A stretch of DNA of 55,469 bases, from IMG/VR virus record IMGVR_UViG_3300050121_000180, positions 1 to 55,469 of that record. One strand, 5' to 3'. Numbering within the stretch: the first letter of the stretch is position 1; each line of letters opens with the position of its first letter. A program made the translations under genes and the position numbers. Shown here piece by piece: positions 811 to 52,784 of the stretch. The stretch is from a virus. Lineage: Duplodnaviria > Caudoviricetes. The notes under the pieces were generated by a model. That model was given only the letters and a program-made list of their open reading frames with translations. It searched no databases and had not been told where the DNA came from.

Positions 811-1188
811 AATTGTCACAATACCCTTCACAAACGCTTCAATCTTTGCAACCAAGTCTTTTGGTAAATCATAATTGGAGCCCATGTGGACAGCCCCGTT
901 CATAAACGTCACGTCAAATAAACCAAAAGCTTTTGCTTCAGGGAACTTAGCTAACACTTTCGAAAGGCTGATTGATTCGGAAGCGTCAGAAGTATAAGCC
1001 TTAGAACGCTTCTGCAATTCTGCGAGTAAACTTGCTAACTGAGCATCGCTTTTACCAGCAAATTTTTCTTTTGTGTAACCTAATTCAAGCTGCTTGCTAA
1101 TCTTTAAGATTTGGTCAATTTGTTGAGAGCTGTCTTTCGTCTTCCCAGCTTGCCTTGCATTTAAATGAATATGAATTACTTTTGCCAT
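805..1188 (-). CDS. Hypothetical protein with N-terminal IHIHLN..KTKD motif; candidate internal head protein
   Basis: AGGGG RBS and extended -10 (TGTTATACT) upstream; motif shared with the scaffold and ORF 41465. Confidence 0.75.
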   Translation of the reverse strand: MAKVIHIHLNARQAGKTKDSSQQIDQILKISKQLELGYTKEKFAGKSDAQLASLLAELQKRSKAYTSDASESISLSKVLAKFPEAKAFGLFDVTFMNGAVHMGSNYDLPKDLVAKIEAFVKGIVTIK

Positions 1189-1246
1189 TTTTAACCCCTT
1201 TAGAGTTATTGTTTAGTTTGATTAGTATAACATAGTTTTCTAATTT

Positions 1247-2614
1247 TTATTTTGTGTAATCGACCCAGCCATCGGTTACAGACCAACCGCCCGCTACAGT
1301 TAATTGCAAGTTATTCTTTCCCGCTGTGCCAATTAATTGTAGTTCTACTGTAGCAGGAGACCCACCAATTGTGTACCCCGTAGCAGTAAACCTGCTTATA
1401 CCATTAGTAAATGTTGTTTCATAATGTAACAGTTTTGATACACTGCTACCTGCTGTTAGTGCGGCTGGTAGTGTCGCTCCAAAATACGTCCGATAAACAG
1501 TGCCATATATACCCCCATACTGCTCTGGAGATACCTCTTCCAAGTTAATAACACTTCTAGGCGCTAACCTAGGTAACGCTAGTACCGCCACATTAGGATG
1601 CACCCGATTGTTAGAAGCTGCGCCAGTTGCATACGGCAGGAATGTAACAGAGTCCATGTACACGTAAGCCAAACCCGTAGCAGGGCCTTCAATTGCATAT
1701 CCTAGTGACCACAACCCCGTTGCTATAGATGTACCTGAAGGAGTGCCTACCAGCGTTGCTGTAACAACCGTAGAACTTGTAAACGCTGTTATAGCCGCAT
1801 AGGCATACATACCGGCTGCACCGTTAGATGGTAAGCAAAACGTACGGCCAACGTCGGTAGATTTGAATCCTGCTCCAGTTCCGCCCGTAACGGTTACACT
1901 ACCAGTTGTTCCAGATAATGTAAGCGCTACAGCACCGAGTGGAATCTGAAAGTTTGTTTCACCAATAATAGCAACCGCACCGCTATCTAATCTGATACCA
2001 GAACTATTAACTGCGATATTAGTAACCTGACTCTGTGCAATTGCTAGTGAACCAGTAGAGGCCACGTGAATTGCTTCATCGCCATTTGCGTCAATTTCAG
2101 ACTCGCCTCCAATTGTTAGTGAGGCTCCTGCGCTAACTCGTGCAACTTGCCCTTGTGCGTTAACAGAAGTCTCCATGTCAGAGATATGTACGGCACCATT
2201 AGTTACATCAATGCAGTAGTTATCACCAGTGCTTGCTGTCTGAGCTATATGCAGCCCATCAATCTCTATGTATGACCCCGTACCAGTATTGTCCGCTAAT
2301 AATGCCGCTACTCCGGCTCCTGCGCTAGATAGCCACATATCAGATAAAAATAGTCTTTGTGGATTAGCGCCAGTGAACTGTACTGCATTATTCGCACCAC
2401 CTGAGATTGACAGTGACTTCAATGAAAAGTGATTGTTAGTTAACGCGCTTCCGCTAGCATCTGCACCGTTAAAGGTAAATTTACCAGATACAACAAGAGG
2501 AGAATGTGTGCCTGAACTGTTATTTCCAGTGATAAATAAACCACCTTGAGTCATAGCTACAGTTTCACTCATAGGGCTGTTAATTCCCGCCCATGCTGGG
2601 ATTGGGATAGGCAT
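1247..2614 (-). CDS. Beta-helix (pectin-lyase-like) tailspike- or adhesin-like protein
   Basis: 455 aa rich in G/S/T/A/N with beta-strand repeats; own promoter; visibly more GC-rich than its neighbours. Confidence 0.6.
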   Translation of the reverse strand: MPIPIPAWAGINSPMSETVAMTQGGLFITGNNSSGTHSPLVVSGKFTFNGADASGSALTNNHFSLKSLSISGGANNAVQFTGANPQRLFLSDMWLSSAGAGVAALLADNTGTGSYIEIDGLHIAQTASTGDNYCIDVTNGAVHISDMETSVNAQGQVARVSAGASLTIGGESEIDANGDEAIHVASTGSLAIAQSQVTNIAVNSSGIRLDSGAVAIIGETNFQIPLGAVALTLSGTTGSVTVTGGTGAGFKSTDVGRTFCLPSNGAAGMYAYAAITAFTSSTVVTATLVGTPSGTSIATGLWSLGYAIEGPATGLAYVYMDSVTFLPYATGAASNNRVHPNVAVLALPRLAPRSVINLEEVSPEQYGGIYGTVYRTYFGATLPAALTAGSSVSKLLHYETTFTNGISRFTATGYTIGGSPATVELQLIGTAGKNNLQLTVAGGWSVTDGWVDYTK

Positions 2615-2647
2615 AGCGTGAATCCTAATGTATTGAAATTAGAAAAA

Positions 2648-2676
2648 AGCATACGCTAAGAAAAGCTGCAAAGCAA
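2648..2676 (-). promoter_or_regulatory. sigma70-type promoter for ORF 2614
   Basis: TTGCTT-17 bp-TATGCT on the - strand. Confidence 0.6.
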
Positions 2677-2687
2677 ATGATGTTTTA

Positions 2688-3041
2688 CAAAGAAAAGCGC
2701 CCTAAACGGGGAGGGCGAATAGGGCGCTTTGATGCCTTCCGCCAGCTCTATGAACAAACGCGAAAGGACTTAATAAAACCAAGATAAGTAACCTTTAGGA
2801 GAAACTCAACTTGGAAACAGATGGGCTAATGATAGTCCCTGTTTTTATAATTGGTGCCTACGCATCGAAAGAATTTTTAACGACTAGCGTTGCGTAGGGC
2901 TTTGTTTAGTTTCCCTGTTACCAGTTAAACCACAGTAGGTTACCAATCTCCTACCATTTTAACCTTCGAAATTAAGCGAAGGTTGGGTGCGGGTCACTAA
3001 TCCCCATTACGCTCCAAGACTTTACGTCATTTGCGAAGTGA
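2688..3041 (-). ncRNA. Candidate ~350-nt structured non-coding RNA
   Basis: Only very short ORFs seen; promoter at 3048-3076; series of hairpins; ends in hairpin 2694-2730 followed by UUUUCUUU. Confidence 0.6.
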
Positions 3042-3090: not shown

Positions 3091-3283
3091 CTATGGAAGT
3101 TTCCTTGCATCCCTGCATCGCCCGCAAGCTTTATTGACAAGGCGGGAAAAGGTTTCTCCACAATAAAAACATTCACCCACTTCCCCCAATTGGAATCTTG
3201 CTTGCTGCATCCCTAAGGTTTTGAACGGTTGTATCCCGTTGCAAGCTTTCATTCATTTCAGCTATATCTAATTCATCAGGCAT
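3091..3283 (-). pseudogene. TraR/DksA-like C4 zinc-finger gene with a 1-nt frameshift in a G5 run
   Basis: Removing one G from the run at 3183-3187 gives MPDELDIAEMNESLQRDTTVQNLRDAASKIPIGEVGECFYCGETFSRLVNKACGRCRDARKLP (D-x-x-D-x-A N-terminus, CxxC...CxxC). Confidence 0.7.
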
Positions 3284-4339: not shown

Positions 4340-4581
4340 TATACAACCCTTAATTCAAACAGCATATTATTTTCATCATAGTCCACAATAAAGTCTGCTT
4401 CGCAAACAGGGCATTCAACGTCACAGTTTGTATTCGCAGGCAGCTTGTTTTCTTTTGCTTCAAGCCTCTTGCAAAGTTCCATGATAATTTCAGAGCTTTG
4501 CGCTTTTTCCTCAAAAAGGGAAATAAGTTCCGTATCGCTGAAGTGATTATATTTTGTCTGTAACATTTCCAAATCTCCCAT
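4339..4581 (-). CDS. Hypothetical protein with CPVC zinc knuckle
   Basis: VECPVCEADF motif. Confidence 0.65.
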   Translation of the reverse strand: MGDLEMLQTKYNHFSDTELISLFEEKAQSSEIIMELCKRLEAKENKLPANTNCDVECPVCEADFIVDYDENNMLFELRVV

Positions 4582-4991: not shown

Positions 4992-5483
4992 CTAATCCTT
5001 AGGTGGAGCAGGGGGCCAGCGTTTAATTTCTATGCCTTGCTGTTTTGATTTAATCAATAACATAGTTTCTACTTTGTTTGCAAACCAGTCAAGGAAATCT
5101 TCGATGTTAAAATCAACTCTTATGATACTGTGGCCACTGGCGATATCGTTGCCGTAAATTAGAGCGCCGTGTGTTTGGCATCTCCATTTCCTCCCGTTCT
5201 GCCTATACAACAAAATAGTTGTTTGCCCTTTTTTTGTAGCTGCTCTACTCTGTTCCCACCATTTATCTAAATCTAAAGTCTCTTGACGTTTGATTTCGAG
5301 CGCCATCCATTCAAGTCCAGCTATATCACTTCCACCTTTATTACATTGCAGCGTATTCCGCTCTAACAATGGTATTTCCTCCATATCATAAACCTTATAG
5401 ATTTTGTCCACAATAGGTTGCAGCATTCGAACAATTTCCCGTTCGGCGTTTGCTCCCTTGTTACGTGATTGGTTACCCGCCAT
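4992..5483 (-). CDS. Holliday-junction resolvase-like PD-(D/E)XK nuclease
   Basis: SRNKGANAERE N-terminus, GSDI...ALEIKRQE catalytic motif, WWEQ. Confidence 0.85.
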   Translation of the reverse strand: MAGNQSRNKGANAEREIVRMLQPIVDKIYKVYDMEEIPLLERNTLQCNKGGSDIAGLEWMALEIKRQETLDLDKWWEQSRAATKKGQTTILLYRQNGRKWRCQTHGALIYGNDIASGHSIIRVDFNIEDFLDWFANKVETMLLIKSKQQGIEIKRWPPAPPKD

Positions 5484-5748: not shown

Positions 5749-5777
5749 AATAATATCCTTAAATTAGAGCTTTCACT

Positions 5778-6018: not shown

Positions 6019-6021
6019 ATT

Positions 6022-8283
6022 TCACTTAAAACTTCCAATTGCATAAGCAATTCCTGTAAAATTGAAAGTATTCTTCAAAGTTATTTTATCAATTTCCACT
6101 AACATTCCACTTTCTACCATTACTTTCAAAGTACGGTCTAAAATTGCTACAGCCCCGCCCCCTGATTTATCATTCTTAAAAGCTGCTCTATTATTAACCC
6201 TTCTTGTGTAATATAATTTTGGAATAATTTTAGCTTCAAATAGATTTTCTTTCACGTTATACGTTTCCAATTGTTTTGCAGTTGAATTTAAATATTCTTT
6301 CGTTATTTTTTCTAAATCAAACAAATGTTTGGAAGCGCCTTCGCCAATATCCCCTGTCTTAAATTTTTGCGTAACAATAGCAACGTCATTCTCCGCAAAG
6401 CGTATGCCCCAAGCAGCTTCTTCCGCGTTAATTACAGGCGCATAAGGGTTTATGCCTATTGCAATAAGTGAAGCTGTTTTTTTAGCTTTAATATGCGAAC
6501 GATTCCATAACTCCGCAACATAACCTTCCGGGTTTTCGTTAACAATTTTATCAATTTTAGAACTAAACTCCCTAAACAGTTTTTCAGCTGCTTCACTAAT
6601 AGTTACATTATTAACCGTTTTGTTAACTGAATTAGTAAGCGCAATTGAAAGCAGACTTCCAATCTTAGCTAATAATTCTTTAGGCGGGGGTTGGCCTGCG
6701 TTTGGGTTATCGGGAACCCGAATCCCTTCATATTGAATAATTGAAAAACGAGGGATAAGCCCGTCAGCGATTTGCTGTTCGTCTAAGTTGTTATAAAATA
6801 TTTCGGGCGTACTTTCGCCTAATATTGTTAAAGCTGGAGATTGTACTTCAGCAGTATTTTTTTCGGAATCGCTATACGCGGAAGTTCCTAGCCAATCATT
6901 AGCGCCAGACTTACCGTATAAATCTAATAAGGAACGTTTAAGCGACTTGCTTGCAGAATTTGCACGTGCGTCATTCATTTCCTGCAATGTATAACCAATT
7001 TCCCCCATGATTGAGAATACGCAGGGTTTTGTGGACAAAGAACGAATTAATGCAGGACCTGAACTAAAAACTACAGGGCCGACAAATTGAGTTATTAATG
7101 GAATAGTTGGGCGTAACGCTGAAACTATACGGTTAATACCTGCGGTTGCCCCATCTTTGCCTCGACCTGTTCCAGCTAACAAAACAATATACAAATTTAA
7201 ACCTTGGCTGGATACATTAAAAGCGCGTCCTGCAATTCCAGCCATAAACGCCATTGCTCCAGCTAATGCAATTTCATGTACAGGTTTAAAAGATGTTTCA
7301 AATATATAATTTGTTAATTCACCTAATAACCCTTGGGGTGTTGTATAAGTGGAACTATGAGGGGTTAGTTTCGTTGGTTTTAAATTAGAAGTTGGAGCAG
7401 GCATTAAAGGCTCTGGCTTTTTCATAATAGCTTCAGCATTCCGCTTAACAGCGTCGAAGTCAATTGGGGCGGGCTCGTTAGCGCGAATTTTGTTTAACAT
7501 TCCGTACTTGCCTATAAAATAAGAATCGCGTTGCGCTTTATCTCTTTTGCCTAACTTACTCATACGGAATAGCCGTATAACTTGCTCGTTGTCTTTTGAA
7601 TAAAATGCGATTATTGAAAGTAATGCAAAGTCAGCTTCACTTTGGCTGGGATAAATGCCTTGCCATTCTCCGTTGCAAAGCGTGATATACTTTTCACCGT
7701 TAACTGCATTGGAAGCACGTTCACAAATTTCAATATCGGAATAGTCCCCGTCAATTTGTTCCAAGTCGACAATGTTAACAGGTTGCATTTCCACATACAT
7801 TACGTCTAATAACTCTTGGCGCTCTTCAATTGGAATATTCCGAATAGCATTGCCAGTGCAAATCATGTACCGGCCTTCGGAATAAATTTCCACATGCGAG
7901 CGGTGAACGCCGCGGGGAATTTTGCCTTTTACAATAATGTGAACACCACGACCAGAAGTGGATAATTCTGTATAGCTATTGAAAGCATTTATGATTTGCC
8001 CAAAGCGTACTTTATCTTCATCGCTTGCTGGATTAGATAGTTTGTCATCCAAGTCGATGAATGTATAAGGGTCGTCTTTAGTAATTACGAAGCCGATTGC
8101 AGGGCTACCTGTTTTTACTGCTTCTTCAAAGCTACCCCATGTTGCTGGATTAGTTACATCGGCAAATTGCCCGGTGCGGGGATTTAATGGAAACTTCTTT
8201 GGCTCGCCTGCTTCGTTCAATGTCATGTCTGCGACAATCCATTGGTTAAGCTGCCTAAGCTCTATTGGAAAATTATTAAGCAT
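6022..8283 (-). CDS. Primase-polymerase (AEP) fused to a DUF3987-like helicase/NTPase
   Basis: FIDLDD, YTELSTSGRGVHIIV, EIYSEGRY and SQSEADFAL primase motifs; Walker A LAGTGRGKD. Confidence 0.9.
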   Translation of the reverse strand: MLNNFPIELRQLNQWIVADMTLNEAGEPKKFPLNPRTGQFADVTNPATWGSFEEAVKTGSPAIGFVITKDDPYTFIDLDDKLSNPASDEDKVRFGQIINAFNSYTELSTSGRGVHIIVKGKIPRGVHRSHVEIYSEGRYMICTGNAIRNIPIEERQELLDVMYVEMQPVNIVDLEQIDGDYSDIEICERASNAVNGEKYITLCNGEWQGIYPSQSEADFALLSIIAFYSKDNEQVIRLFRMSKLGKRDKAQRDSYFIGKYGMLNKIRANEPAPIDFDAVKRNAEAIMKKPEPLMPAPTSNLKPTKLTPHSSTYTTPQGLLGELTNYIFETSFKPVHEIALAGAMAFMAGIAGRAFNVSSQGLNLYIVLLAGTGRGKDGATAGINRIVSALRPTIPLITQFVGPVVFSSGPALIRSLSTKPCVFSIMGEIGYTLQEMNDARANSASKSLKRSLLDLYGKSGANDWLGTSAYSDSEKNTAEVQSPALTILGESTPEIFYNNLDEQQIADGLIPRFSIIQYEGIRVPDNPNAGQPPPKELLAKIGSLLSIALTNSVNKTVNNVTISEAAEKLFREFSSKIDKIVNENPEGYVAELWNRSHIKAKKTASLIAIGINPYAPVINAEEAAWGIRFAENDVAIVTQKFKTGDIGEGASKHLFDLEKITKEYLNSTAKQLETYNVKENLFEAKIIPKLYYTRRVNNRAAFKNDKSGGGAVAILDRTLKVMVESGMLVEIDKITLKNTFNFTGIAYAIGSFK

Positions 8284-8294
8284 TTAGGCTGCCT

Positions 8295-8516: not shown

Positions 8517-8556
8517 GTGATTTCCTTAACGTTTAAATATTACTTACAAGGCGTTT

Positions 8557-8640: not shown

Positions 8641-8673
8641 CTGTTTACTGTTTAATTTTATAGGGAGTTAAAA

Positions 8674-9240: not shown

Positions 9241-9241
9241 T

Positions 9242-9436: not shown

Positions 9437-10173
9437 CTGATAAAATTAAAGTATTGGACCACGGATTTATTCTTCTCCACAATATGGCTGGGCCAACTAG
9501 ACGAATTTATGAAGAAACTGATGAGGGTTTAACTGTTGAACGCGATTTCGATGCAGACGATACTGACCCGGCAAACTCAGCACGTATGTCATTCAATCAA
9601 ATGGATGCGGGGCGTACACGTGAACAGGATTTCAAGCTTGCTGAATATTTAATGAAAAACCAACACTGGACTCCGTTTGAGTCTATTGAAGTTTGGATTG
9701 AAATGAAATTGCCTATATTTGTAGCTCGGCAATTTGTGCGTCATCGTACAGCAAGCTTAAATGAAGTATCAGGCCGTTATGTTACTTTGCCTGAAGAATG
9801 GTATATCCCTGAAAATGTTGGGGCAGCTCCAAAAGATAAGAAGCAAGGGCAAGCTGAAGGCTTAGATGATATTTTACAAAAACAATTTAAGTATGATTTA
9901 GATAAACAATGCGGTATTTCCTATAACTTATATTTACATCACATTGCTCAAGGCGTTGCGCCGGAACATGCTAGAATGTTTCTACATTTAAACCATTATA
10001 CTCATTGGTTATGGAAACAAGACTTGCGAAACCTTTTGGACTTTTTACGCCTGCGCGACCACGGACATGCACAGATTGAAGCGCAAATGTACGCCAAAGC
10101 AATTGATGCAGCTATTCGTCAATACCTCCCTGAAACAATGAAACTTTATGATAACTATGTAAGGATGCAATAA
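9433..10173 (+). CDS. thyX: Flavin-dependent thymidylate synthase
   Basis: HWTPFE, RQFVRHRTASLNEVSGRY (RHRx7SxR), HAQIEAQ. Confidence 0.95.
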   Translation: MTDKIKVLDHGFILLHNMAGPTRRIYEETDEGLTVERDFDADDTDPANSARMSFNQMDAGRTREQDFKLAEYLMKNQHWTPFESIEVWIEMKLPIFVARQFVRHRTASLNEVSGRYVTLPEEWYIPENVGAAPKDKKQGQAEGLDDILQKQFKYDLDKQCGISYNLYLHHIAQGVAPEHARMFLHLNHYTHWLWKQDLRNLLDFLRLRDHGHAQIEAQMYAKAIDAAIRQYLPETMKLYDNYVRMQ

Positions 10174-10607
10174 TGTTAGAAAACCCGGAATTCCTAGCCA
10201 AACTAAAAGCTTGGCAAACTGCCGCTCAACAGGCAAAAACTGCAACGGAGCTTGAAAGCAAACTTCGAGATGAAGTGTTTAAAGAAGCTTTTCCAGTTGA
10301 AGGGGCGAAGCAAGATAGCAAGGGGACTTTTTACGAAGACTTACCAAACGGCTGGCGCTTGCAAGCTGTTACTAAACTCACAGCAAAATTGGACGAAGCT
10401 GCTGTTCCTGCAATTAAAGAAAAACTTTTGGAAATGAAAGTAATCGGTGTGGACACACTATTTAAATATAAACCTTCGCTTGTTGCTGCGGAATATAAAA
10501 AATTAACAGTTGAATCCAAAGCTGTAGTTGACGAAGCAATTAAAGAAACCCCTGCAAAAGTTGTGTTGGAATTGCTTGCTCCAAAACCTGCGGAATTAGA
10601 CGTTTAA
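10173..10607 (+). CDS. Recombination-module protein (Gp157/Gam-like position)
   Basis: Helical N-terminus, LFKYKPSLVAAEYKKL; sits just before the AAA ATPase-SSB genes. Confidence 0.55.
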   Translation: MLENPEFLAKLKAWQTAAQQAKTATELESKLRDEVFKEAFPVEGAKQDSKGTFYEDLPNGWRLQAVTKLTAKLDEAAVPAIKEKLLEMKVIGVDTLFKYKPSLVAAEYKKLTVESKAVVDEAIKETPAKVVLELLAPKPAELDV

Positions 10608-10622
10608 TCATCACTAAACTAT

Positions 10623-12570: not shown

Positions 12571-12589
12571 ATTTTTAATGGAGTATAAA

Positions 12590-14258: not shown

Positions 14259-15935
14259 ATGGCAATTATCCCGCGTGACTACCAAGAAACTGCTATTGAA
14301 GCGCCGTTTAAATATTTTGAAAATGGGGGTGTAGGCAATCCTTTAGTATTAGCTCCGCAGGGAACTGGGAAAAGTGTCATAATTGGTGAATTTGTTAGAC
14401 GCGCAATTACTCGTTATCCGGGTACTCGAATTCTTATGCTTACACATGTTAAAGAATTAATTTCACAGAATATGGCAAAACTTTTAGATATTTGGCCTAA
14501 CGCCCCTGTAGGAATTTATTCAGCAGGGCTTGGAGCTAAAGATGCTTTTTATCCTATTACTTACGGCGGAGTAAGCTCGGTTGCTAAATGCAAAAATATT
14601 GCAATCTTTGGTAAAATAGATTTACTGCTTATTGACGAATGCCATTTAGTAAGCCCGAATGATGCAACGGAATATAATCGTGTTATTAAACAATTGAAAA
14701 AATTAAATCCCCATTTAAAAGTAATAGGCTATACGGCAACGGACTTCAGGTTGGGGCATGGTCGCTTAACTGAAAACGACCATTTATTCACGGATGTTGC
14801 GATTAATATGTGTACCTTGGAAGGCTTTAATTGGTTCTTTGACCAAGGGTATTTAGCACGGTTGGTTCCTAAACGAACCAAGATGCAAATTGACAGCTCC
14901 AAGATTCACATGAAGCAAGGTGAGTTCGTAGAAAGCGAAGCTCAAGCTGTAATGGATAAGCATGAAGTAAGTTGGCAAGCAATTCATGAAATGATGGAAG
15001 AAGGGGTTAATCGCAAGTGTTGGTTAGTATTTGCTCAAGGTGTTAACCATACGGAACACGTTTGGCAAATGATGTTGGACTTAGGAATCAATGCAACCTA
15101 CGTGCATTCTAAAATGCCTAAAAAACAACGTGACGCTAACATTGCAGATTTCAAAGCGGGTAAATATTTAGCAATGGTCAACTCAGGAATCTTAACTACT
15201 GGCTTCGACTGTCCACAAATTGACTTGCTTGCCGTATTACGTTTGACGCAATCGCCAGGTCTATGGACACAAATCCTAGGTAGAGCAACTCGTCCTGATT
15301 ATGCTGAAGGGTTTGATTTGTCCACACAATCAGGGCGTTTGGCTGCCATTGCTGCGAGTGATAAACCTAACGCGCTAGTGTTAGACTTTGCTGGAAATAC
15401 TAAACGCCTTGGGCCAATTAACGACCCTGTAATTCCAAAATATAAAGGTGCGGGAGGCGGGGGAGTTGCTCCAGTTAAAGTCTGCGAAGTTTGCATGACA
15501 TACAACCACGCTTCAGTTCGTTATTGCACTCAATGCGGAACGGAATTTATTGCAGCCGTTAAGATTACAAATTATGCAGGAACGGATGAATTAATTGCTA
15601 GTAACGAAGTTAAAGAATTAGAGTCAACAATATTTACAGTTGATAAAGTTACTTATAAAAGGCACAAAGGCCGCAATAGCGCAATAGATAGTTTGAAAGT
15701 TTCCTATTATTGTGGAATCCGTATGTTTAGCGAATACATCTGCCTTGAACATGCTGTAGGAAATTACGCTAATAATAGAGCGCGTAATTGGTGGCGTGAT
15801 GCTACAGGAAAAACAATGAAGCCTCCGCTTACAATTGCTGAAGCTTTAGAACGTCTAAACGAAGTTAGGCAAGCTAGGCGGATTCGTGTATTAGTAAAAG
15901 AAACAAATTCGGAGATTATTAATTATGAATACTAA
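14259..15935 (+). CDS. Superfamily 2 helicase (RadD/YejH-like) with zinc finger
   Basis: PQGTGKS, LLIDECH, YTAT, LTTGFD, QILGRATR, CEVC..CTQC. Confidence 0.92.
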   Translation: MAIIPRDYQETAIEAPFKYFENGGVGNPLVLAPQGTGKSVIIGEFVRRAITRYPGTRILMLTHVKELISQNMAKLLDIWPNAPVGIYSAGLGAKDAFYPITYGGVSSVAKCKNIAIFGKIDLLLIDECHLVSPNDATEYNRVIKQLKKLNPHLKVIGYTATDFRLGHGRLTENDHLFTDVAINMCTLEGFNWFFDQGYLARLVPKRTKMQIDSSKIHMKQGEFVESEAQAVMDKHEVSWQAIHEMMEEGVNRKCWLVFAQGVNHTEHVWQMMLDLGINATYVHSKMPKKQRDANIADFKAGKYLAMVNSGILTTGFDCPQIDLLAVLRLTQSPGLWTQILGRATRPDYAEGFDLSTQSGRLAAIAASDKPNALVLDFAGNTKRLGPINDPVIPKYKGAGGGGVAPVKVCEVCMTYNHASVRYCTQCGTEFIAAVKITNYAGTDELIASNEVKELESTIFTVDKVTYKRHKGRNSAIDSLKVSYYCGIRMFSEYICLEHAVGNYANNRARNWWRDATGKTMKPPLTIAEALERLNEVRQARRIRVLVKETNSEIINYEY

Positions 15936-16942: not shown

Positions 16943-17554
16943 ATGGCTAAAGAAAAACTTGAACCAATCTTGTATATGGTTGTTGATGTTACAACTATTG
17001 AATCAACTAAAATTCGATTCGTTACAAATAACGAACGCGCTTTATTACTGGGTCAAACTTATATGAATGACCATCCAGGCCGCAAGTGTATTGCACCCAT
17101 GGTTGAAGCTCGTAGCTTTTCAAAATTAGATAAGCTTGCATTACAATATTTATTCTGGAATACATTTGCAGAAAAACCAAACGAAGATTATGCGCAACTA
17201 TTGCAGGATTGCTTAACACGTACATTAAAACTTGAAGTTGACACTAGCGAAATTGGTGCTTTGCAAGCCTTAAAGGATTTGTCCACAACAAACAATCCTG
17301 TAACTGTTGACGGGGTGCCAAAAGCTCCCAAAGTTAAAAAAGAACCAACTGCAAATGCTGTTCCGAAAACAACTTCAACATGTGGGTTAGTTTGGGATTT
17401 ATGCGCTAAAGTGTTTAAAGATTCAGGACTTGCGTTGGACGCTAAAGCTTTGCGGGGACTTGTTATGGCTGCTTGCGAAGAAGAAGGCGTTAATAAATCA
17501 ACTGCTGCTGTTCAATGGGGCAAGTGGAAAGCGAGTGTTCAAGTTAGTGCGTAA
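16943..17554 (+). CDS. Putative DNA-binding protein, paralog family member 3
   Basis: TGGAGAA RBS; VWDLC...RGLVMAACEEEGVNKSTAAVQWGKWK. Confidence 0.8.
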   Translation: MAKEKLEPILYMVVDVTTIESTKIRFVTNNERALLLGQTYMNDHPGRKCIAPMVEARSFSKLDKLALQYLFWNTFAEKPNEDYAQLLQDCLTRTLKLEVDTSEIGALQALKDLSTTNNPVTVDGVPKAPKVKKEPTANAVPKTTSTCGLVWDLCAKVFKDSGLALDAKALRGLVMAACEEEGVNKSTAAVQWGKWKASVQVSA

Positions 17555-38679: not shown

Positions 38680-40494
38680 TCATCTATTAACATTGATTTG
38701 AACATCAATCGTATGAATCGCTCCAGCAAGTTTAACAGCCACTTGAATTGGTGGGGATTTACGAGCAGCGCGGTCAGCTGGGTTTTGTAGAGCTACTGGA
38801 GCCACGTAAACATAGAAACCTTTAGGTAAAAAGTCACCTTGGGCTAAGTTACCAAAACCACCTGAGCTCCAAACACCCGGTGCAAGTAAACCATTAATTA
38901 CACCTTGTGAGCAAGCTGACTCAACGGTAGTTACAAGCAAATGAGTTCCAATATCTGTTTGAGGAATCTTTGTTGTGCTAGTGTAAAGTAAGTTATAAAG
39001 CAATGTTTGAATGTCTAATGCAAGCCAGTCCGTACCTGTAATGATGTCCACAAAATTACCTGAAGAACAAACGCCTTTTTCAATGATTGCCGTATTGTTA
39101 TTGTATGCTACAAACACGTTCGCATTTTTTGCTTCTAATGCTGCAATTTGAGTCGCATTTAATGTTTCAGCAACGATACCGGGTTCTTGTTTATACATCA
39201 AAGTGATTACAGTATTGTTACCGTTATAATCTGTTGTCAAGATGCGAGCAAGAAGTGAGCAAACTGAATAAAGGTTAGAACTTGAATACTGAACAACGGT
39301 TCTGTTGTAAAGTAGTTGTGATAACAAATATGCAATATCCGTCACGCTAACAGACGAAAGGACACCCGCCGCAGTTGTAGAAACACCATAAAGATGCTTA
39401 TTAGTAGCAGCTTCAATGTAAGGTGCAATTGCTAAATGGTCGGAATCAGCCGCACCTGTAACAGTTAAACCATACCAGTTTTGGCCAAAGTTTTGGTCGA
39501 ATATTGTAACAGCTTGAACCGCAGTTTCCGCAGCGATACCGTTTGCAACATACGCGCCGGAGTTTGTAACTGAATTACCAAACAAACCATAAAGGTTTGT
39601 ACCTGTTCCGCCAGCTAACGTTGCTCCTGAAAGTGTGATTGCAGTTGACACTTTTGCAAGTGTGTAAGCATTGCCCGCTGTTCCTGTAAGAACGGAAACA
39701 ACATACAATGTTGAGCCTACTACACTGTAAGTCATTTTGACTAATTGTACGTCCACTGAAGCAGACAAGAAAGACAAAAGGCTTGCAAGGGTGATTGCTA
39801 AAGTTCCGCCAATTTGTACTTGGTTACCAACCGGAGTTGTTGAAACAAATGTTATTACAGTTCCGTTGATAGTTAAAGTATCCGCAGCAGTAGGGTTCGC
39901 ACTGAATACAGCATTGCCCAAAGCAGTTGGAGCATTGAAGAATGAAACGCTAGAAGTTGCGCCTGTTGTGCCTGAAGTTACTTCAAATCGTGAAAAAACA
40001 GCATTCCAAACTACAGTTGAACCTGTTGAGAGAGCTGCAATTGCAGTTTGAAGGATTTGGGCAACTCCATTTAAGTTTGTTGCCGCAGCAAAGTTTAAAC
40101 CTGTTACAGCTAAAGGAATGCTGTCAACTGTAACTTGAACAGTTCCGCTTGTAATTGCAGTAAACAAGGATAAAGCTTGTTGGGCTGCTGACAATGTTGC
40201 GCCTATTAATTGGCCACCAACGGCTGTTTTAGCCCAACGACCAATTGAAAGGCTTGTTGGTTGAGGGCTTTGTTCAAACCACAATACCGCAGCTAAGTAT
40301 TCAGGGGAAGTTGTACCAAAATCCAAAGCTACTTGGGCGATACTTTGATAATTACGAATACGAGAAACAACATCAATGACGCTAGACGAACCTAGGATTA
40401 GCAATGTTGAAATGTTTTGAAATTGCGCTGGATTAGGCGACAGATTAACTGACGTTGAAATCAAGCGGCTAATTGAAAGTGCGTTACCAGCCAT
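38680..40494 (-). CDS. Contractile tail sheath (DUF3383-like)
   Basis: DFGTTSPEYLAA..WF.Q.P.P, YKQEPG, KIPQTD.G, R.ARKSPPI, AGAIH. Confidence 0.92.
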   Translation of the reverse strand: MAGNALSISRLISTSVNLSPNPAQFQNISTLLILGSSSVIDVVSRIRNYQSIAQVALDFGTTSPEYLAAVLWFEQSPQPTSLSIGRWAKTAVGGQLIGATLSAAQQALSLFTAITSGTVQVTVDSIPLAVTGLNFAAATNLNGVAQILQTAIAALSTGSTVVWNAVFSRFEVTSGTTGATSSVSFFNAPTALGNAVFSANPTAADTLTINGTVITFVSTTPVGNQVQIGGTLAITLASLLSFLSASVDVQLVKMTYSVVGSTLYVVSVLTGTAGNAYTLAKVSTAITLSGATLAGGTGTNLYGLFGNSVTNSGAYVANGIAAETAVQAVTIFDQNFGQNWYGLTVTGAADSDHLAIAPYIEAATNKHLYGVSTTAAGVLSSVSVTDIAYLLSQLLYNRTVVQYSSSNLYSVCSLLARILTTDYNGNNTVITLMYKQEPGIVAETLNATQIAALEAKNANVFVAYNNNTAIIEKGVCSSGNFVDIITGTDWLALDIQTLLYNLLYTSTTKIPQTDIGTHLLVTTVESACSQGVINGLLAPGVWSSGGFGNLAQGDFLPKGFYVYVAPVALQNPADRAARKSPPIQVAVKLAGAIHTIDVQINVNR

Positions 40495-41087: not shown

Positions 41088-41464
41088 TAAATAGCTACAT
41101 CCATTAAATCAATTGAAGCTGCAATAGCTTGATAAAAACCTTGCCCATATTGTGGATAAGGGTCTAATGCTTTTACAACATAATTATCACCGCGCCAAAT
41201 AATAATATCAGGCTGGGCTCCATTTACTGCACTTTGCAATCTTGTCTTTGTAACAATGCTCAAAACTCGTTCAAGCATTTGCAATTCAGGATAACGTTTT
41301 AAATCAGCTCCGTTTGCCATTGTAACAACTCCAAAAGATGCAGTTGTTGTTGGTGTAGTTGTAGAACGCCCGTGAATGTCCACAGTTTCAACATTTCGCT
41401 GAATAGAATAGTTATCCGTAAATTCAGGCGATAATAAAACATCAGAAACGTCAAGGGTTGCCAT
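41087..41464 (-). CDS. Head closure protein
   Basis: LDVSDVL..P.F, PDIIIWRG..Y.V. Confidence 0.75.
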   Translation of the reverse strand: MATLDVSDVLLSPEFTDNYSIQRNVETVDIHGRSTTTPTTTASFGVVTMANGADLKRYPELQMLERVLSIVTKTRLQSAVNGAQPDIIIWRGDNYVVKALDPYPQYGQGFYQAIAASIDLMDVAI

Positions 41465-42739: not shown

Positions 42740-43207
42740 TTAAACTGAAGGAATGTAAGGTTTTACACCATTTGCTTTTGAATACCAATGGTCCGCTTCG
42801 TCAGGTTCCATTTCAGTAATCCCTGCTTTGAAATGTTTAGTTTGCTCGTGTGAAATTGTCAAATCAAAAGCTTGCGGAATAACAACCGTAACAGTTGATT
42901 TATTGGTTTGTTCAACTGGGGCAGCTTCAGGAGTTTCTTCTGGAGTTTCGTCAACTTTAGGAATGTCCACAATTGAGGCAGCATCTACTTCAGCAGTTTT
43001 TTCAACGGCTTCTACTTCAGCAGTAGGCGCAATAAATTCGTCAGTTATAGCAGGAGTTTCAGCAGGTGCTTCTTGCACTAAAGGAGCTTCCGTTTCTGCG
43101 TTTGCAGTAGGAGTTTCCCAAGGTTGTTGAATTGCAGCAGCGGGCACTTCTGGCGCTGGTGCGGGTACAGGTGGAACAATTGCTTCAGGAGTTTCTTTAT
43201 TAGCCAT
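42740..43207 (-). CDS. Acidic Pro/Ala/Glu-rich virion-associated protein
   Basis: AGGAG RBS before MANKET; C-terminal F.AG..EM....ADHWY..ANGV. Confidence 0.7.
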   Translation of the reverse strand: MANKETPEAIVPPVPAPAPEVPAAAIQQPWETPTANAETEAPLVQEAPAETPAITDEFIAPTAEVEAVEKTAEVDAASIVDIPKVDETPEETPEAAPVEQTNKSTVTVVIPQAFDLTISHEQTKHFKAGITEMEPDEADHWYSKANGVKPYIPSV

Positions 43208-43278: not shown

Positions 43279-44388
43279 TTATAGGCCGTCAAAGTAGCCT
43301 ATGCACTCGGCGTATACAACTTCAGTCACACCTAAACGGCAGAAGTATGTAGTTTTATGATAAATACTATCATATTGGATTGGGGTGCGTTGTAACAATG
43401 TCATTGGGTAACGAACACGTTGGCGGTCCTTAACATAAATTACAGCACGGTCAATACCAACGGTTCCAATTGTACCACCTACACCAGCCCCGATGCACCA
43501 TTTTAGTGGAAGGATAGTTAAATCACCTTGGCCTGAAGCTTTAAGAATGTTGTTATCCAAAATATATTTAAGGATAGAAACTTGGGCAGCAGTACCAATC
43601 TTTTGAGTGCTGATATAACCAAATTGAGCTGGAGGTAACAACAAACGGTTTGGCATTACAGCCCAACCAGTGCGAGCCCAAGTTGTTGTAATCATAGCGT
43701 TAACGTCTGCTAAGATTTCGTCAGGTGTCTTTTTAGTCCAAGCTGAGAAGCCTGAAACACCATTTGGGAAGTTTGCAGCAGTTACGCCAGCATTGTTAAT
43801 CAAACCTTTTACACCACTTGAAACGTCACCGATGTAAACTTGTTCATCGATATCCATTTGGTGTTTGAGTTGCAATGCTTCAAATTTCTGAGCATCTACA
43901 GGACGGCCTAATTTAGCAGCTGATTCAAGCTCTAAAATAGTATATTTCAGTTCCAAGCCCCATGGTGTTAATGGATTTGGGATTTTACCAATGTCCACAG
44001 ATACGCCTGCGATTTGGTCTGAGTTTTTACCAATCCATGCTTTACCGTTACCAATACCGTTGCCAGTACCTAGTGAACCGCTTGAAGCAAAGTTGCTTAA
44101 TGTGAAGCTTGACACTTCATCCGCAATCGTTACGTCTTCACGTAAATCGATATCGCGGCCATAAGTTACAGCAGCAAGAGGAGCATGTAAAGTAAGGTCT
44201 AAGCGTTCAAGCTCGCCTACTAAGAATGCACCAGTTGAGTCGACTGTACGACCATCATAAGTTTTAACTGCATAACCCAACGATTTGCCTGCTTGATTAC
44301 CAGCTGCATCCAATGTGCGAAAGCCTGAATCAAATGTTTGCATGTCACGGGTCTTCATGCGTACTGGAAGAATTAAATTACTTTTCAT
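43279..44388 (-). CDS. Major capsid protein (DUF2184-like, HK97 fold)
   Basis: GAFLVGELERLD, YTILELE.A..GRP.D, DEQVYIGD, TPDEILAD.N, YFDGL. Confidence 0.93.
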   Translation of the reverse strand: MKSNLILPVRMKTRDMQTFDSGFRTLDAAGNQAGKSLGYAVKTYDGRTVDSTGAFLVGELERLDLTLHAPLAAVTYGRDIDLREDVTIADEVSSFTLSNFASSGSLGTGNGIGNGKAWIGKNSDQIAGVSVDIGKIPNPLTPWGLELKYTILELESAAKLGRPVDAQKFEALQLKHQMDIDEQVYIGDVSSGVKGLINNAGVTAANFPNGVSGFSAWTKKTPDEILADVNAMITTTWARTGWAVMPNRLLLPPAQFGYISTQKIGTAAQVSILKYILDNNILKASGQGDLTILPLKWCIGAGVGGTIGTVGIDRAVIYVKDRQRVRYPMTLLQRTPIQYDSIYHKTTYFCRLGVTEVVYAECIGYFDGL

Positions 44389-47315: not shown

Positions 47316-48100
47316 TCTTCCGGAATAATTGGTTCTGGATAACAACGGCAGTTATAAATCTGCCCCGCATGAGTCACGCTGCCATCGCTCAAAGTTGGCG
47401 GCGTATCCCATGCAATAACTTTCCCGTCCATTTCTTTATGGGAATGTCGTACATCGGAATCCCCGCTTGTCCGCCATATATAATGTGTTATGCCCAAATG
47501 CGAGGAACGCGCTTCTGTAAGCTTTGAAGCTGTACGTGATACCTCAGTTCGCGCAATGCAAGTCGCGCGGGACTTAGTAACTTCGCCCGTTTTCATTATT
47601 TCAGCAGCAATCTCTTTTGGACGCGCGGAAGTTATCAAAGCTTCACTTGTTAATTTGTGGACACGTTGAGCAGCTTCAAGCGGCAAGCTAGTTATGAGTA
47701 TAACTTGCTCGTTTAACAGTTGATTGAATAATTGCCCAGTTGATGAAGTTTCTAATTCTTTACGAAGCGAACGTCCAAAGTTATTGCCCACAGTATTCCA
47801 AGCAAGAACATTCTTTTCGGATATTTCAGTTATCATTTTGTTCGCAAGAACTCGCGCCCAAGGGCTTATGAGCTGGGCATACTGTTGAAGCATTTGTTCA
47901 ATCTGTCTTGGGTTTTGCGGAATGCCGCGCGGGGACATCCCTTTAATAATATTGTCAATCTGTTTTACAACTTGTTTCAAAGAACGCAAGTAATCATTTT
48001 CCATCCGCTTTGCAGCTCTAAAACGTTCTTTGGCAAAACGTTTCATCTCGCGAGGGGTTGCGTCTTTTGTTGTTGCCATTAGATTTTCGAAGGCTGACAT
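47312..48100 (-). CDS. Minor head protein (Mu gpF / SPP1 gp7 family)
   Basis: RA..IARTE, YIWRTSGDSDVRHSH, GQIYNCRC. Confidence 0.92.
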   Translation of the reverse strand: MSAFENLMATTKDATPREMKRFAKERFRAAKRMENDYLRSLKQVVKQIDNIIKGMSPRGIPQNPRQIEQMLQQYAQLISPWARVLANKMITEISEKNVLAWNTVGNNFGRSLRKELETSSTGQLFNQLLNEQVILITSLPLEAAQRVHKLTSEALITSARPKEIAAEIMKTGEVTKSRATCIARTEVSRTASKLTEARSSHLGITHYIWRTSGDSDVRHSHKEMDGKVIAWDTPPTLSDGSVTHAGQIYNCRCYPEPIIPED

Positions 48101-49579: not shown

Positions 49580-50980
49580 TTAATTAGCTTTACCCAATTT
49601 TGCCCACATTAATAGCTTGTCAACTCCGCTTATCATATCAAAAGCTCCCGAGCCCGCATCCACTTGGTCATCGTGAACACCTTTTGACGGGAACTGTTCA
49701 TATTCAGAAAACAAAACATCGTTCCATGCCCCTCGCAAAATATCAACGTTCCCATTTTGCCATTGAGCTGCAAACGGTTCCGCGCGAGTTACTTTGTCGC
49801 CTGTTTCCCTAGATACTTCAACTTTAAATCCTGCCAAATCATTTACATAAGTTTCAGCTTGGTCTTTCCCTGCTTGACCCGGGTCTTGCGAGATGCCAAT
49901 ACGGACTTTTTTACCATCGTTATTTGCTGTTCGTAAAACAAGCTCCCGAACCTTAGCAGCCCTAAATCTTTCACGTATAACATCGCCAACAACGAAGCGC
50001 CCATTCTTGCGTCTGCCCATTAAAAGCCCGACTGTATAATCAGGATTTGGATTGCCTTCAGCGGGTTCTGTAGCAGCCAAATCCCAGCGACGAACCCAGC
50101 TTACAACATCTTCAGCTGATTCCACAATAGTAACTTCGCTTTTTTTAAAGTAAAGCCCGGCAGCAGGTTTAATTTTCCAGTTACCTTCAAGCAATCTTGC
50201 ACGTTCTACGCGGGACAAAGCTTTAAGGTTGGCCATGTAACCTGGGTCAGAAGCCATCAAAGCTTTATTGTCAGTAAGCTTTGATAAGATGAAGGTTAAC
50301 GATTTAGGCTGGGGTTGTTCCGTATGGTCGTCCGGTAAATCATGATTCTTATGCGCTTGAAATAATTCATCGCTACTATCGCCCCAAACAATTTCATCAT
50401 CAATCCGTAAGAACCAACGGATAACTCCGCATCGTTCTTCAATTGCAAAACCTGTGTTTGGCTCAATCCACCAATCAATTAATTCTGCAACCCATGATTC
50501 AGCGTCAGGGTTTGTAGTTGCTCTAACGTATCCTTTAACTCCAGACATAGAACGATTACGGGAAAGCATGTAGAAAAATTGGGTCTTTGTAAAGTGTGTT
50601 AATTCATCAAAAAGAATAAGAGGGATTTCAGCGCCTTGCCAATCCAATACACTGGATTCATTTTCCAAGTGAGCGAACTTAACGCGCCCGCCTTTTGGCC
50701 AGCGCCATTCCATAGGTTGCTGAACTGGGATGCCCCCGCATTGTGGATACATATTCATTGACGCATCCCATAATCCGCCTGGATTTCGAACTTGGGTTGC
50801 ATTACGCCTAAACGCTACAGCATTAAATCTTCTGTTAGTTGTAACATGCCTGAGTGGCTCAAGTAAAATCGAGAACGACTTGCCCCCACCAGCCGCACCG
50901 CCGAAAATAATGATATCAGCTGAGTTAGAAAGGAAAGCTTCTTGTGGCCCAGCTTGAGGGCGTAAACTTTCACCAGCCAT
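49580..50980 (-). CDS. terL: Terminase large subunit
   Basis: GGAAGGGKS, LFDELTHF, ATTNPD, RWDLAAT, QDPGQAG, HDDQVDA. Confidence 0.95.
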   Translation of the reverse strand: MAGESLRPQAGPQEAFLSNSADIIIFGGAAGGGKSFSILLEPLRHVTTNRRFNAVAFRRNATQVRNPGGLWDASMNMYPQCGGIPVQQPMEWRWPKGGRVKFAHLENESSVLDWQGAEIPLILFDELTHFTKTQFFYMLSRNRSMSGVKGYVRATTNPDAESWVAELIDWWIEPNTGFAIEERCGVIRWFLRIDDEIVWGDSSDELFQAHKNHDLPDDHTEQPQPKSLTFILSKLTDNKALMASDPGYMANLKALSRVERARLLEGNWKIKPAAGLYFKKSEVTIVESAEDVVSWVRRWDLAATEPAEGNPNPDYTVGLLMGRRKNGRFVVGDVIRERFRAAKVRELVLRTANNDGKKVRIGISQDPGQAGKDQAETYVNDLAGFKVEVSRETGDKVTRAEPFAAQWQNGNVDILRGAWNDVLFSEYEQFPSKGVHDDQVDAGSGAFDMISGVDKLLMWAKLGKAN

Positions 50981-51579
50981 TACATGCGCTCTACAGGGGA
51001 GTTATCATAAAGCAATTCAGATAAGTCGTCATCATCCCCATCGTCAAATTCTAAGTCGTCATTTATGACGTTTAATACGGGGGAAACAATCTCACCGTTT
51101 TCAATAGTCAAACCTGAAGGTAAATCGCGTCCGTTGTGTGGGATATAAACTTGGACTGAACTTCCAATATTAAAGTCGCCGCTAATTTCAGCCTTAACAG
51201 GTTTGTCTAAACCTAGGAATCGTGCTCTACGCTCCATTATTTTAATAGCCGTATCCGTTGCTTCTTTGTTGAATATCGGGTTGCCGTCTTTGTCTGTTTG
51301 AGTAGCTGCTAAGAAAGCTGGAAGGAATATGGCATCTAAACGAGCAGTTTCAATTTTTACTAACTCTTGAAAAGACTCTTCAATGATTTCGCGAAGTGCT
51401 TTACGAACAAGCTTTTCAGCATATGAACGGGAGCAGCCTATTGTGGTTGCAATGTGGGGATATCCGTGGCCTTCTTTACGCATGTTTGCAGCAGCAACCA
51501 TTTTCTGCCGAGTTTCAAATACGGAAGCTTGCGTTTCTTCTTCTCTATTTCGTTTAACAATATGATTTGGCGCGGCCAT
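50980..51579 (-). CDS. terS: Terminase small subunit
   Basis: N-terminal HTH (G.GY..IA..IG.S), RLD, MERRARFLGLD.P; abuts TerL. Confidence 0.8.
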   Translation of the reverse strand: MAAPNHIVKRNREEETQASVFETRQKMVAAANMRKEGHGYPHIATTIGCSRSYAEKLVRKALREIIEESFQELVKIETARLDAIFLPAFLAATQTDKDGNPIFNKEATDTAIKIMERRARFLGLDKPVKAEISGDFNIGSSVQVYIPHNGRDLPSGLTIENGEIVSPVLNVINDDLEFDDGDDDDLSELLYDNSPVERM

Positions 51580-51630
51580 GAAGATGCTTAAAGTTATTAG
51601 TTAAGCATCACAATACAGGAAACAGGCTAA

Positions 51631-51957
51631 TCAATGCAAGGTATTCAGCATAAAAGGGTCTTTATTTATAGTAGAATGGACAATATTTGAACGTTCTTCA
51701 ACTTCAACATAATCACGAAATACTTGATTAGCAGCTATAAACAATAAACCATCTATAGCTGTTTCCACAATAAATTCGCTATCGTTTGGGATTTCTTTGT
51801 AAAGCAATTTAAAATCATCAACGCACCTATTAATTCGTTCTTGTAATTCCGTCATTAACATTGAACGCCCTGTTAAGCGTGTCATTGTATTAACTTGCCT
51901 GCAACAAATCTCAATAGCTGTTACAAGCTCCAGAACAATAGGTTGGTTATTCTTCAT
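51631..51957 (-). CDS. Hypothetical protein
   Basis: Packed operon. Confidence 0.65.
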   Translation of the reverse strand: MKNNQPIVLELVTAIEICCRQVNTMTRLTGRSMLMTELQERINRCVDDFKLLYKEIPNDSEFIVETAIDGLLFIAANQVFRDYVEVEERSNIVHSTINKDPFMLNTLH

Positions 51958-52594
51958 TGTTAGCCTTAAAGGTTTTAAAGTAATCTTTATATGAAATAAT
52001 GTTACTTGGATGAGTCAAAAAGCCCCATTTACGTTTCTTTGGCCCTGTAATAAATAAAGTCCAAACAGGTAAGAATTGAGTATGACAATTCCCAACGACT
52101 GTTTTATCAGCAAGTTTCAACCGGTGCATTTGCGAATCGTTCCGAAACAGAATTGAGCCTTGCGGGCAATAAGTTTCTAATTCCCCTACATAAAAATTAT
52201 TCTTATCATAGTTAGGCGTTACTTCATAATAGTTGCTCATTAATATCACGCTAACAAAGTTCCAAGGGTGATTATGAAAGTCTCTGCCTATGTCGCTTCT
52301 CAGTATTTTATGCACCCTAACAGCTATTCCTAAACTTTGCAACACCCAAGCAATAGGGCGTTTAAGGAAACTTACTTTGCCGCAGCCAATAGCTGTTTCC
52401 GAACCTTCCATTTTATAGGGAACAAGCCAATAGCGTTCCATATATCCCTCAAGATGGAAGTAAGGCGTTTTGATTGCACGTTGAATTAAATATTCAGCAA
52501 TACGTTCAAAGATATCCCAGCGAAGAAGCCATAGTAATAATAAAAGATTTAACGCAATTATAATTGCAGAAGTCCAAATAAAATAATATACCAT
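51947..52594 (-). CDS. Cupin-fold protein with N-terminal TM
   Basis: VHKILRSD..RDFHNHPW.F.S.IL...Y.E, HRL, WTLFITGP...WGF. Confidence 0.7.
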   Translation of the reverse strand: MVYYFIWTSAIIIALNLLLLLWLLRWDIFERIAEYLIQRAIKTPYFHLEGYMERYWLVPYKMEGSETAIGCGKVSFLKRPIAWVLQSLGIAVRVHKILRSDIGRDFHNHPWNFVSVILMSNYYEVTPNYDKNNFYVGELETYCPQGSILFRNDSQMHRLKLADKTVVGNCHTQFLPVWTLFITGPKKRKWGFLTHPSNIISYKDYFKTFKANNEE

Positions 52595-52595
52595 A

Positions 52596-52784
52596 CTAAC
52601 CTTCGAAGTTTTTATTAAAGATTTTCAAAACAGTTTCAACTTGCTTACTAGACAAATCTGAAACTTTACGCCCTGTATCTGTTAGTTCAACAATTCTGTC
52701 CACAAAATCATGTTCCCAAGTAGACAGGTCGTTTGTTCCAAGTAAGCCTGAAAGCTGCTTAACCATTGTGTTAACTGATGCCAT
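52596..52784 (-). CDS. Hypothetical protein
   Basis: MASVNTMVKQLSGLLGTNDLSTWEHDFV...LSSKQ. Confidence 0.7.
   Translation of the reverse strand: MASVNTMVKQLSGLLGTNDLSTWEHDFVDRIVELTDTGRKVSDLSSKQVETVLKIFNKNFEG

Follow-up and report, generated by a model that had tools for sequence, protein, structure and literature searches.

A selected octamer dispersed over a phage genome as a probable template site of the phage's own primase-helicase

The virus record IMGVR_UViG_3300050121_000180 (Duplodnaviria; Caudoviricetes), a complete sequence of 55,469 bp with a G+C content of about 40% that was analyzed over its whole length and is referred to below as the window, carries 19 exact copies of the octamer TGTCCACA or its complement TGTGGACA. 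Is this word selected as such or does it follow from the encoded proteins, and if it is selected, what reads it? A sequence-only reading of the same DNA had proposed a selected genome-wide recognition code reminiscent of the DnaA box, which might serve as a datA-like sink for host DnaA, as a set of sites for a dimeric phage protein, or as programmed nick sites. Our analysis upholds the code and points to a different reader: comparison with homologous enzymes and related phages suggests that the phage's own primase-helicase probably recognizes 5'-TGTGGACA-3' in the template as its initiation site for lagging-strand priming.

The octamer is in strong excess under all null models considered. It occurs on average 1.26 times, and at most 4 times, in 100 dinucleotide-preserving shuffles, while 1000 shuffles that keep all protein sequences and the codon usage of each gene yield 1.44 ± 1.11 copies with a maximum of 6; the sequence-only reading had estimated 1-2 copies from base composition. 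Markov models of order 2 and order 3 predict 0.7-0.9 copies, and under both of them the octamer is the top word. A ranking of the 1,994 octamers with at least 6 copies under the codon-preserving null, a comparison that the sequence-only reading had recommended, also places it first (z = 15.9), followed by words that overlap it and by another motif, TATTGTGG(A), the 9-mer of which is treated below. The octamer is sharply defined, as none of its 24 one-mismatch neighbours is clearly enriched, and the neighbours mismatched at positions 1-5 are, if anything, depleted (9 observed vs approximately 21 expected).

All 19 sites are located inside open reading frames (ORFs) on both strands, as had been noticed before, with the coding strand reading TGTCCACA at 8 of them and TGTGGACA at 11. 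The sites are translated as Val-Asp in 11 cases, Leu-Ser-Thr in four, Val-His in three and Cys-Pro-Gln in one, and the occurrence of the same word in four reading contexts and in both gene orientations places the signal at the level of DNA. In the IMG/VR contig G001, which is related to the window genome-wide with approximately 50% amino-acid identity, the amino acids of four sites are preserved (LST twice, SVDI and RVHK), but they are specified by other codons and the site is missing. Taken together with the enrichment beyond the codon null, these alternative codons indicate that the sites were made by synonymous choice. The enrichment is not explicable by protein sequence or by codon bias, and the octamer is selected; the idea of a genome-wide recognition code written into genes through synonymous codons has therefore held up.

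On the plus strand, TGTGGACA is found at 885..892, 7030..7037 (within the primase gene), 10448..10455, 24948..24955, 25524..25531, 37263..37270 and 47656..47663, and on the minus strand at 5405..5412, 15210..15217, 15319..15326, 17280..17287, 23152..23159 (within the DpdA gene), 31616..31623, 36237..36244, 39045..39052, 41377..41384, 42964..42971, 43992..43999 and 52697..52704; all 19 positions had been reported exactly. Likewise correct were the seven copies of TTGTCCACA, the two copies of TTATCCACA at 35012 and 41151, and the sites at 4381, 21019 and 24843 that match GTCCACA only. The six TATCCACA variants exist as well, with the correction that the one assigned to 32189 starts at 32190. Another enriched word, which overlaps the core of the octamer, escaped the sequence-only reading: TATTGTGGA/TCCACAATA is present in 13 copies vs 1.35 expected under the codon-preserving null. 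TATTGTGGA occurs on the plus strand at 15708..15716, 21016..21024, 23905..23913, 37260..37268 and 41148..41156, and on the minus strand at 3157..3165, 4382..4390, 5407..5415, 9476..9484, 25891..25899, 35015..35023, 50121..50129 and 51764..51772. Its copy at 5407 overlaps the octamer at 5405, and the copy at 37260 forms, together with the octamer at 37263, the longer word TATTGTGGACA.

The candidate reader is a protein of 753 amino acids, encoded on the minus strand at 6022..8283, which combines a primase-polymerase (prim-pol) domain of the archaeo-eukaryotic primase (AEP) type, a helix-bundle domain of the NrS-1 type and a DUF3987 helicase. Pfam assigns PF22763 (NrS-1 helix-bundle domain) to residues 214-246 and PF13148 (DUF3987) to the same protein, and detects no DNA-binding domain in it beyond the helix-bundle and helicase parts. 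Residues 25-270 match PDB chains named 'Primase' (7rr4, 7rr3, 6k9a and 6a9w) with E about 1e-22; the aligned residues of these chains are those of the primase gene product of phage NrS-1, which in a direct comparison exhibits 29% identity to residues 9-247 (E = 2e-25). According to the accessible text of PMC8718748, the NrS-1 prim-pol has the template site 5'-TTTGGTTA-3' (credited to Zhu et al. 2017), recognizes 5'-GTGG-3' or GTGA more efficiently than TTTGGTTA, with GTG being essential, begins the primer with the base immediately 5' of the site, and binds the site with its helix-bundle domain (credited to Boudet et al. 2019). The primase of plasmid pRN1, as described in the accessible text of PMC2965215, primes only on templates with GTG, at the 5' side of this trinucleotide, and requires its helix-bundle domain. 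The word TGTGGTTA of phages CAjan and HD01 (see below) is a single letter away from TTTGGTTA and includes GTGG; TGTGGACA of the window shares the T-GTGG head with TGTGGTTA and possesses the GTG(G) core of the characterized primases. In the genome of NrS-1 itself the top hexamer is GTGGTT (31 copies vs 11 expected). The NrS-1 record also contains a tight cluster of the repeat AAGTGTAAC(C), with 11 copies and a coefficient of variation (CV) of the gaps of 3.1, which probably represents a set of iterons or operator sites.

The octamers of related genomes were ranked by their excess over the order-3 Markov expectation. Each of the phages with the same replication block has its own strongly enriched word of the form TGTGG-N-Y-A. 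In CAjan (Escherichia) it is TGTGGTTA, with 47 copies vs 2.6 expected; HD01 (Acinetobacter) has 27 copies of TGTGGTTA and 16 of TGTGGTCA, and JenK1 (9g-like) 37 of TGTGGTCA and 18 of TGTGGTTA. TGTGGTCA is also the word of PaMx25 (36 vs 1.3 expected) and ART (Achromobacter; 38 copies), and is found 22 times in VpKK5 (Vibrio), next to 21 copies of TGTGGCCA. TGTGGGCA characterizes Halfdan (Escherichia, Lokivirus; 20 vs 0.2 expected), D0 (Acinetobacter; 24), phage 73 (Pseudomonas; 19 vs 0.26 expected) and RcThunderbird (Rhodobacter; 17, with 19 copies of TTGTGGGC), while birk (Salmonella) employs TTGTGGGT (29 vs 1.5 expected). The signal is lower in rank in Baskent_P4_1 (Pseudomonas), where TGTGGTCA comes second (13 vs 1.6 expected), and in G001, where TGTGGACA comes fourth (7 vs 1.0 expected). 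Altogether, a TGTGG word is the top octamer in 12 of the 14 phages that possess a homologue of the primase-helicase (the window included), and it is not among the top octamers in any of the seven genomes or contigs that do not. Of 388 GTGGNYA sites in 10 phages, 355 are preceded by T, a near-invariance that fits a fixed initiating nucleotide, with T as the template of the first primer base. The hosts of these phages belong to Escherichia, Acinetobacter, Pseudomonas, Vibrio, Rhodobacter, Achromobacter and Salmonella, i.e. to Alpha-, Beta- and Gammaproteobacteria, and since they span three proteobacterial classes, the word belongs to the phage lineage rather than to a host.

Judging from gene content across these genomes, the full-length primase-helicase appears to be the best correlate of the word. 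Listeria phage B025, which has the N-terminal AEP part only, has no such word, and neither have Moraxella phage Mcat31 and Rhizobium phage 16-3, which keep the SF2 helicase (29-31% identity) and the Cas4-family exonuclease (38-41%) and have no homologue of the primase. Other genes were considered as the determinant and rejected. DpdA, which came into consideration since the phage carries it together with QueC, QueD, QueE and FolE, has no match in Halfdan, RcThunderbird, D0, 73 and birk, all of which carry a word of the family, so that the deazaguanine system can be discarded as the reader. The family-B polymerase (PolB) is present in Pseudoalteromonas phage AL (40% identity), whose primase is of another kind and whose genome lacks the word, and has no match in Baskent_P4_1, G001, VpKK5 and birk, which have the word. 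The structural genes are shared by the IMG/VR contigs G002, G003 and G004, which have nothing else in common with the window and do not contain the word. The top heptamer of phage AL is GCCAGTA (19 vs 3.1 expected), whose spacing is not even (CV 0.92); this heptamer may play a corresponding part for a different enzyme.

The placement of the sites in relatives is also of the kind that priming would demand. On each strand taken alone they are distributed more evenly than at random, at mean distances of 1.6-10.5 kb. The per-strand CVs of the gaps are 0.26/0.29 in VpKK5, 0.38/0.17 in Halfdan, 0.53/0.42 in CAjan, 0.45/0.50 in HD01 and 0.56/0.45 in the motif-rich half of ART (P <= 0.008 in each case), and in CAjan and HD01 the orientation of the sites alternates beyond chance (P about 1e-4). 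If forks can run in either direction, a priming code would need sites that are evenly spaced on each strand, at approximately the scale of bacterial Okazaki fragments. In the window, 7 sites on the plus strand and 12 on the minus strand are spread over the whole genome, and with the strands merged the placement is more regular than chance, as judged both by the largest gap of 6,092 bp (P = 0.01) and by the gap CV of 0.62 (P = 0.02).

A number of observations weigh against a priming function. In the window itself the evenness on the individual strands is not significant (P = 0.12 and 0.20), no alternation of site orientation is seen, and the density is low, with per-strand mean gaps of 4.6 and 7.9 kb, which are reduced to 2.9 and 5.0 kb when the second word TATTGTGGA is added. 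The genome of NrS-1 has no evenly spaced genome-wide octamer, and contains TTTGGTTA once. Mcat31, 16-3 and B025 are temperate, so that lifestyle is a confounding factor in these negative controls. The trees of the primase, the SF2 helicase, Cas4 and the sliding clamp (the last in a quick version only), labelled by motif spelling, share one topology, with Halfdan grouped with RcThunderbird, CAjan with JenK1, HD01 with PaMx25, and the window with G001 and Baskent_P4_1; therefore, covariation of the spelling with protein sequence cannot single out the reader. Individual sites are not kept either. Conservation of their synonymous positions in relatives had been suggested as a check by the sequence-only reading, and it was not found: none of the 12 alignable sites is retained in G001, and both sites seen covered by a relative with 90-97% identity from freshwater-sediment run X4 are changed, the one at 10448 by a G>A substitution at 10451 and the one at 24948 in three letters. 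At these distances, however, conservation of individual sites is not the right test. Finally, in ART the word TGTGGTYA occurs 48 times in the 46-95 kb half and twice in 1-46 kb, and if this record represents a true genome, replication can manage without sites over 46 kb. All replication genes of ART lie in 46-95 kb, and the G+C content of the two halves is similar (0.54 vs 0.56); the asymmetry could reflect a recent exchange of modules or a chimeric record.

With these reservations, the proposed mechanism can be outlined as follows. The helix-bundle domain of the primase-helicase would read GTGG and the next three bases (ACA in the window) on the unwound single-stranded template, and the primer would begin opposite the T immediately 5' of GTGG, in vivo as well; the weaker companion word TATTGTGGA may represent a preferred template of the first primer bases. 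Selection would have written the sites into both strands via synonymous codons, so that the lagging strand could be primed every few kb whichever way the fork moves. The domain as the reader, primer starts at the sites in the infected cell, and Okazaki priming as their purpose are what we infer from the homology, the phyletic link and the spacing. A broader scheme is conceivable, and we put it forward tentatively, as a possibility that could well fail in one or another of its parts. It would comprise an extensive and widely distributed group of virulent phages (Queuovirinae, Lokivirus, Septimatrevirus, Titanvirus, Rosemountvirus and the peat phage described here) that write a T-GTGG-N-Y-A priming code at regular intervals on both strands, where it would be read by the helix-bundle domain of the AEP primase-helicase; sequence would fix the start of each Okazaki fragment, the last three letters would co-evolve with the enzyme, and the code might confine the phage replisome to phage DNA, because host DNA does not contain the word at such a density.

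The primase-helicase might also use the octamer in a different manner, as a double-stranded loading or binding site, for instance for a C-terminal DNA-binding part, in which case the copies would be dispersed points of replisome entry or restart and not primer starts. The alpha protein of satellite phage P4 binds iterons, which offers a parallel. The co-occurrence of the word with the primase-helicase speaks for this use as much as for priming, and an octamer is longer than the cores of 3-4 nt that, going by the accessible accounts of NrS-1 and pRN1, suffice for priming by these enzymes. On the other hand, the Pfam result quoted above leaves such a loading function without a further DNA-binding domain, and both the match to the single-stranded template sequences of NrS-1 (GTGG and TTTGGTTA) and the near-invariant 5' T favour reading of the template, so we regard loading on duplex DNA as unlikely.

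Another explanation assigns the word to the SF2 helicase and the Cas4-family nuclease as a Chi-like marker of self, whereby host DNA devoid of the word would be degraded and the sites in phage DNA, facing both ways at short intervals, would tame the nuclease. Genes for both enzymes are present in all 14 motif-bearing phages, and even spacing on two strands would suit protection from ends that arise anywhere. Yet both genes are retained (29-41% identity) in Mcat31 and 16-3, which do not have the word, an argument that is not decisive since both phages are temperate. Moreover, a matching biochemical precedent for recognition of a sequence is available for the homologue of the primase, but none is known for this pair of helicase and nuclease. 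A role of this kind is in our opinion doubtful, and we consider priming by the primase-helicase the preferable interpretation.

Motif-directed single-strand nicks, of the type known from T5 or from the tf/Rembedalsseter group, have a precedent in nick-associated 9-mers that are approximately 13-fold enriched and conserved across a phage group, as documented in the accessible text of PMC11780129. The motifs of the tf group are, according to the same text, found mostly on one strand and on one side of the genome, in contrast to the sites in the window, which occupy both strands and the entire genome. Moreover, the two candidate genes of the window, HNH and EndoVII, have no tblastn match (E <= 1e-5) in CAjan, HD01 and G001-G004, so a shared nicking enzyme is not supported. 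As for some other small DNA-binding protein, the dimer that the sequence-only reading envisaged on TGT-NN-ACA finds a dyad only in the spelling used by the window, since TGTGGTTA and TGTGGGCA are without symmetry. Nicking and binding by a small protein are both quite improbable.

Host DnaA boxes for titration or recruitment, or a signature derived from the host such as an uptake sequence or a host Chi, are the least credible of all and can be dismissed almost entirely: TTGTCCACA with its seven copies is DnaA-box-like and there are the two sites of TTATCCACA, but the 5' T needed for the nonamer is available at only 7 of the 19 sites, position 3 is G, TTWTNCACA has only 8 matches genome-wide, the words of relatives (TAACCACA, TGACCACA, TGCCCACA, TGGCCACA and AACCCACA) break this consensus with TGTGG as the conserved part and recur over hosts of three proteobacterial classes, the word follows a phage gene and not the host, being absent from phages that share the structural genes only, the dispersed and more even than random placement is not the clustering of a datA-like sink, and E. 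coli Chi is present just once per strand in CAjan.

The primase-helicase gene belongs to a replication and recombination block in which PHROG and Pfam searches identified RusA, the primase-helicase, MazG, a ThyX-like thymidylate synthase, a Sak4-like protein and SSB, as well as the Cas4-family exonuclease, the SF2 helicase, the sliding clamp and the family-B polymerase. Inside this block, at 18297-23273, lies a cluster for 7-deazaguanine modification of DNA, composed of QueE (18297-19016), QueC (19028-19810), QueD (20392-20832), FolE with a long N-terminal extension (20777-21766) and DpdA (22341-23273), with two intervening genes, one for an HNH endonuclease (19878-20405) and one that is EndoVII-like (21723-22325). 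The window proteins searched did not include a QueF-like one. The closest cultured kin of the replication block are Queuovirinae and allied siphophages, with 65-67% identity for DpdA, approximately 50% for PolB and 31-47% for the primase.

The genome is a mosaic, as the replication and modification half (1-27173) is Queuovirinae-like and the structural half (27198-54769) is different. The latter encodes baseplate and tail-fibre proteins that resemble those of contractile-tailed phages, in the manner of a contractile-tail module, and the best matches of the terminase (approximately 50%) are found in Rhizobium phages and in a Methanoculleus virus. A tail-fibre-like gene at 29907-31076 contains a run of GGT/ACC triplets (CACCACCACC words) at 29951-29984 and 30281, which encodes a run of glycines. 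The metagenome evidence consists of assembled contigs from four runs, two of which hold identical copies: contigs identical to the window (5400-25399) occur in two further peat-metagenome runs, in addition to the diverged relative in run X4 mentioned above.

Avoidance of palindromes in the window is extreme. GATC is present three times (15949, 20295 and 26827) vs approximately 107 expected under the codon-preserving null, and ATGCAT and CTGCAG are absent, with 20.8 and 19.5 copies expected, respectively, from the order-3 Markov model. This depletion has the appearance of restriction avoidance, and the same phage carries a deazaguanine modification system. GATC is depleted in the relatives G003 (13 copies) and HD01 (47 copies) as well. 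The contigs related through structural genes only have over-represented words of their own, as measured against a Markov expectation and not the codon-preserving null: CCTCTTCA in G002 (22 vs 3.3), AGCAGACC (9 vs 0.85) and ACCTCGTGG (5 vs 0.05) in G003, and CAAGATCG in G004 (15 vs 0.9), the genome of which is GATC-depleted, too.

Whole genomes thus appear to be shaped around an 8-nt version of the AEP priming site that is evenly placed on each strand. If this is true, the octamer provides a handle, at the level of sequence, on the starts of the lagging strand in vivo, and the natural variants of specificity (ACA, TTA, TCA, GCA, CCA and GT-) become material for dissecting how the helix-bundle domain reads DNA. 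It would also explain a strong compositional signal in phages used as models or considered as therapeutic candidates (CAjan, 9g-like, PaMx25, 73 and Halfdan), warn that large-scale recoding of such phages could delete functional sites, and correct the tempting interpretation of the word as a DnaA box. In the main texts of open-access papers and preprints (supplements not covered) we found nothing on phages under the spellings of the octamer and their complements, and no account of primase words placed at even intervals along a phage genome; for TTTGGTTA as a part of longer words, the matches listed were all primer listings without relation to the subject. The nanopore study of DNA modification in CAjan (PMC7544227) makes no mention of TGTGG, CCACA, enrichment or nicks. 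Sequence-specific priming in vitro by helix-bundle AEP primases is known, and it is the selected, evenly spaced, genome-wide 8-nt version, for which we found no account in print, that is apparently new.

Among characterized systems, the sites of the NrS-1 prim-pol are the closest in kind. The N-terminus of the enzyme is homologous, the helix-bundle domain is of the same family and the GTGG core is common to both; the primer starts 5' of the site, as stated in the accessible text of PMC8718748, precisely where phages of the window type have the near-invariant T. The sites of NrS-1, however, were defined in vitro and do not form an even genome-wide octamer, and NrS-1 is a temperate phage whose prim-pol is also the replicative polymerase, while the phage of the window has separate genes for a polymerase and a clamp, and a full 8-nt word under selection. 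The ORF904 primase of pRN1 likewise unites an AEP primase, a helix bundle and a helicase in one protein that is specific for GTG and initiates 5' of the motif (accessible text of PMC2965215), but it comes from an archaeal plasmid, its motif is a trinucleotide, and its sites are not known to be placed genome-wide. Gp4 of phage T7 and bacterial DnaG (GTC, CTG) also start lagging-strand primers at specific sequences, according to the same text; they have an unrelated fold (Toprim and zinc finger), and their sites of 3-5 nt are frequent by chance, with no even placement known. The nick motif TACTRTGAC of tf and Rembedalsseter resembles the octamer in being long, strongly enriched, conserved in a phage group and mostly intragenic, as far as the accessible text of PMC11780129 describes it, but it is strand-biased, concentrated on one side of the genome and tied to observed nicks, whereas the word in the window is present on both strands and follows the primase. 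Finally, Chi shares with our octamer its length, asymmetry and over-representation, as well as being read on one strand by an enzyme that translocates along DNA; Chi is a property of the host, oriented with replication, whereas the word described here is specific to a lineage of phages and accompanies them across many hosts.

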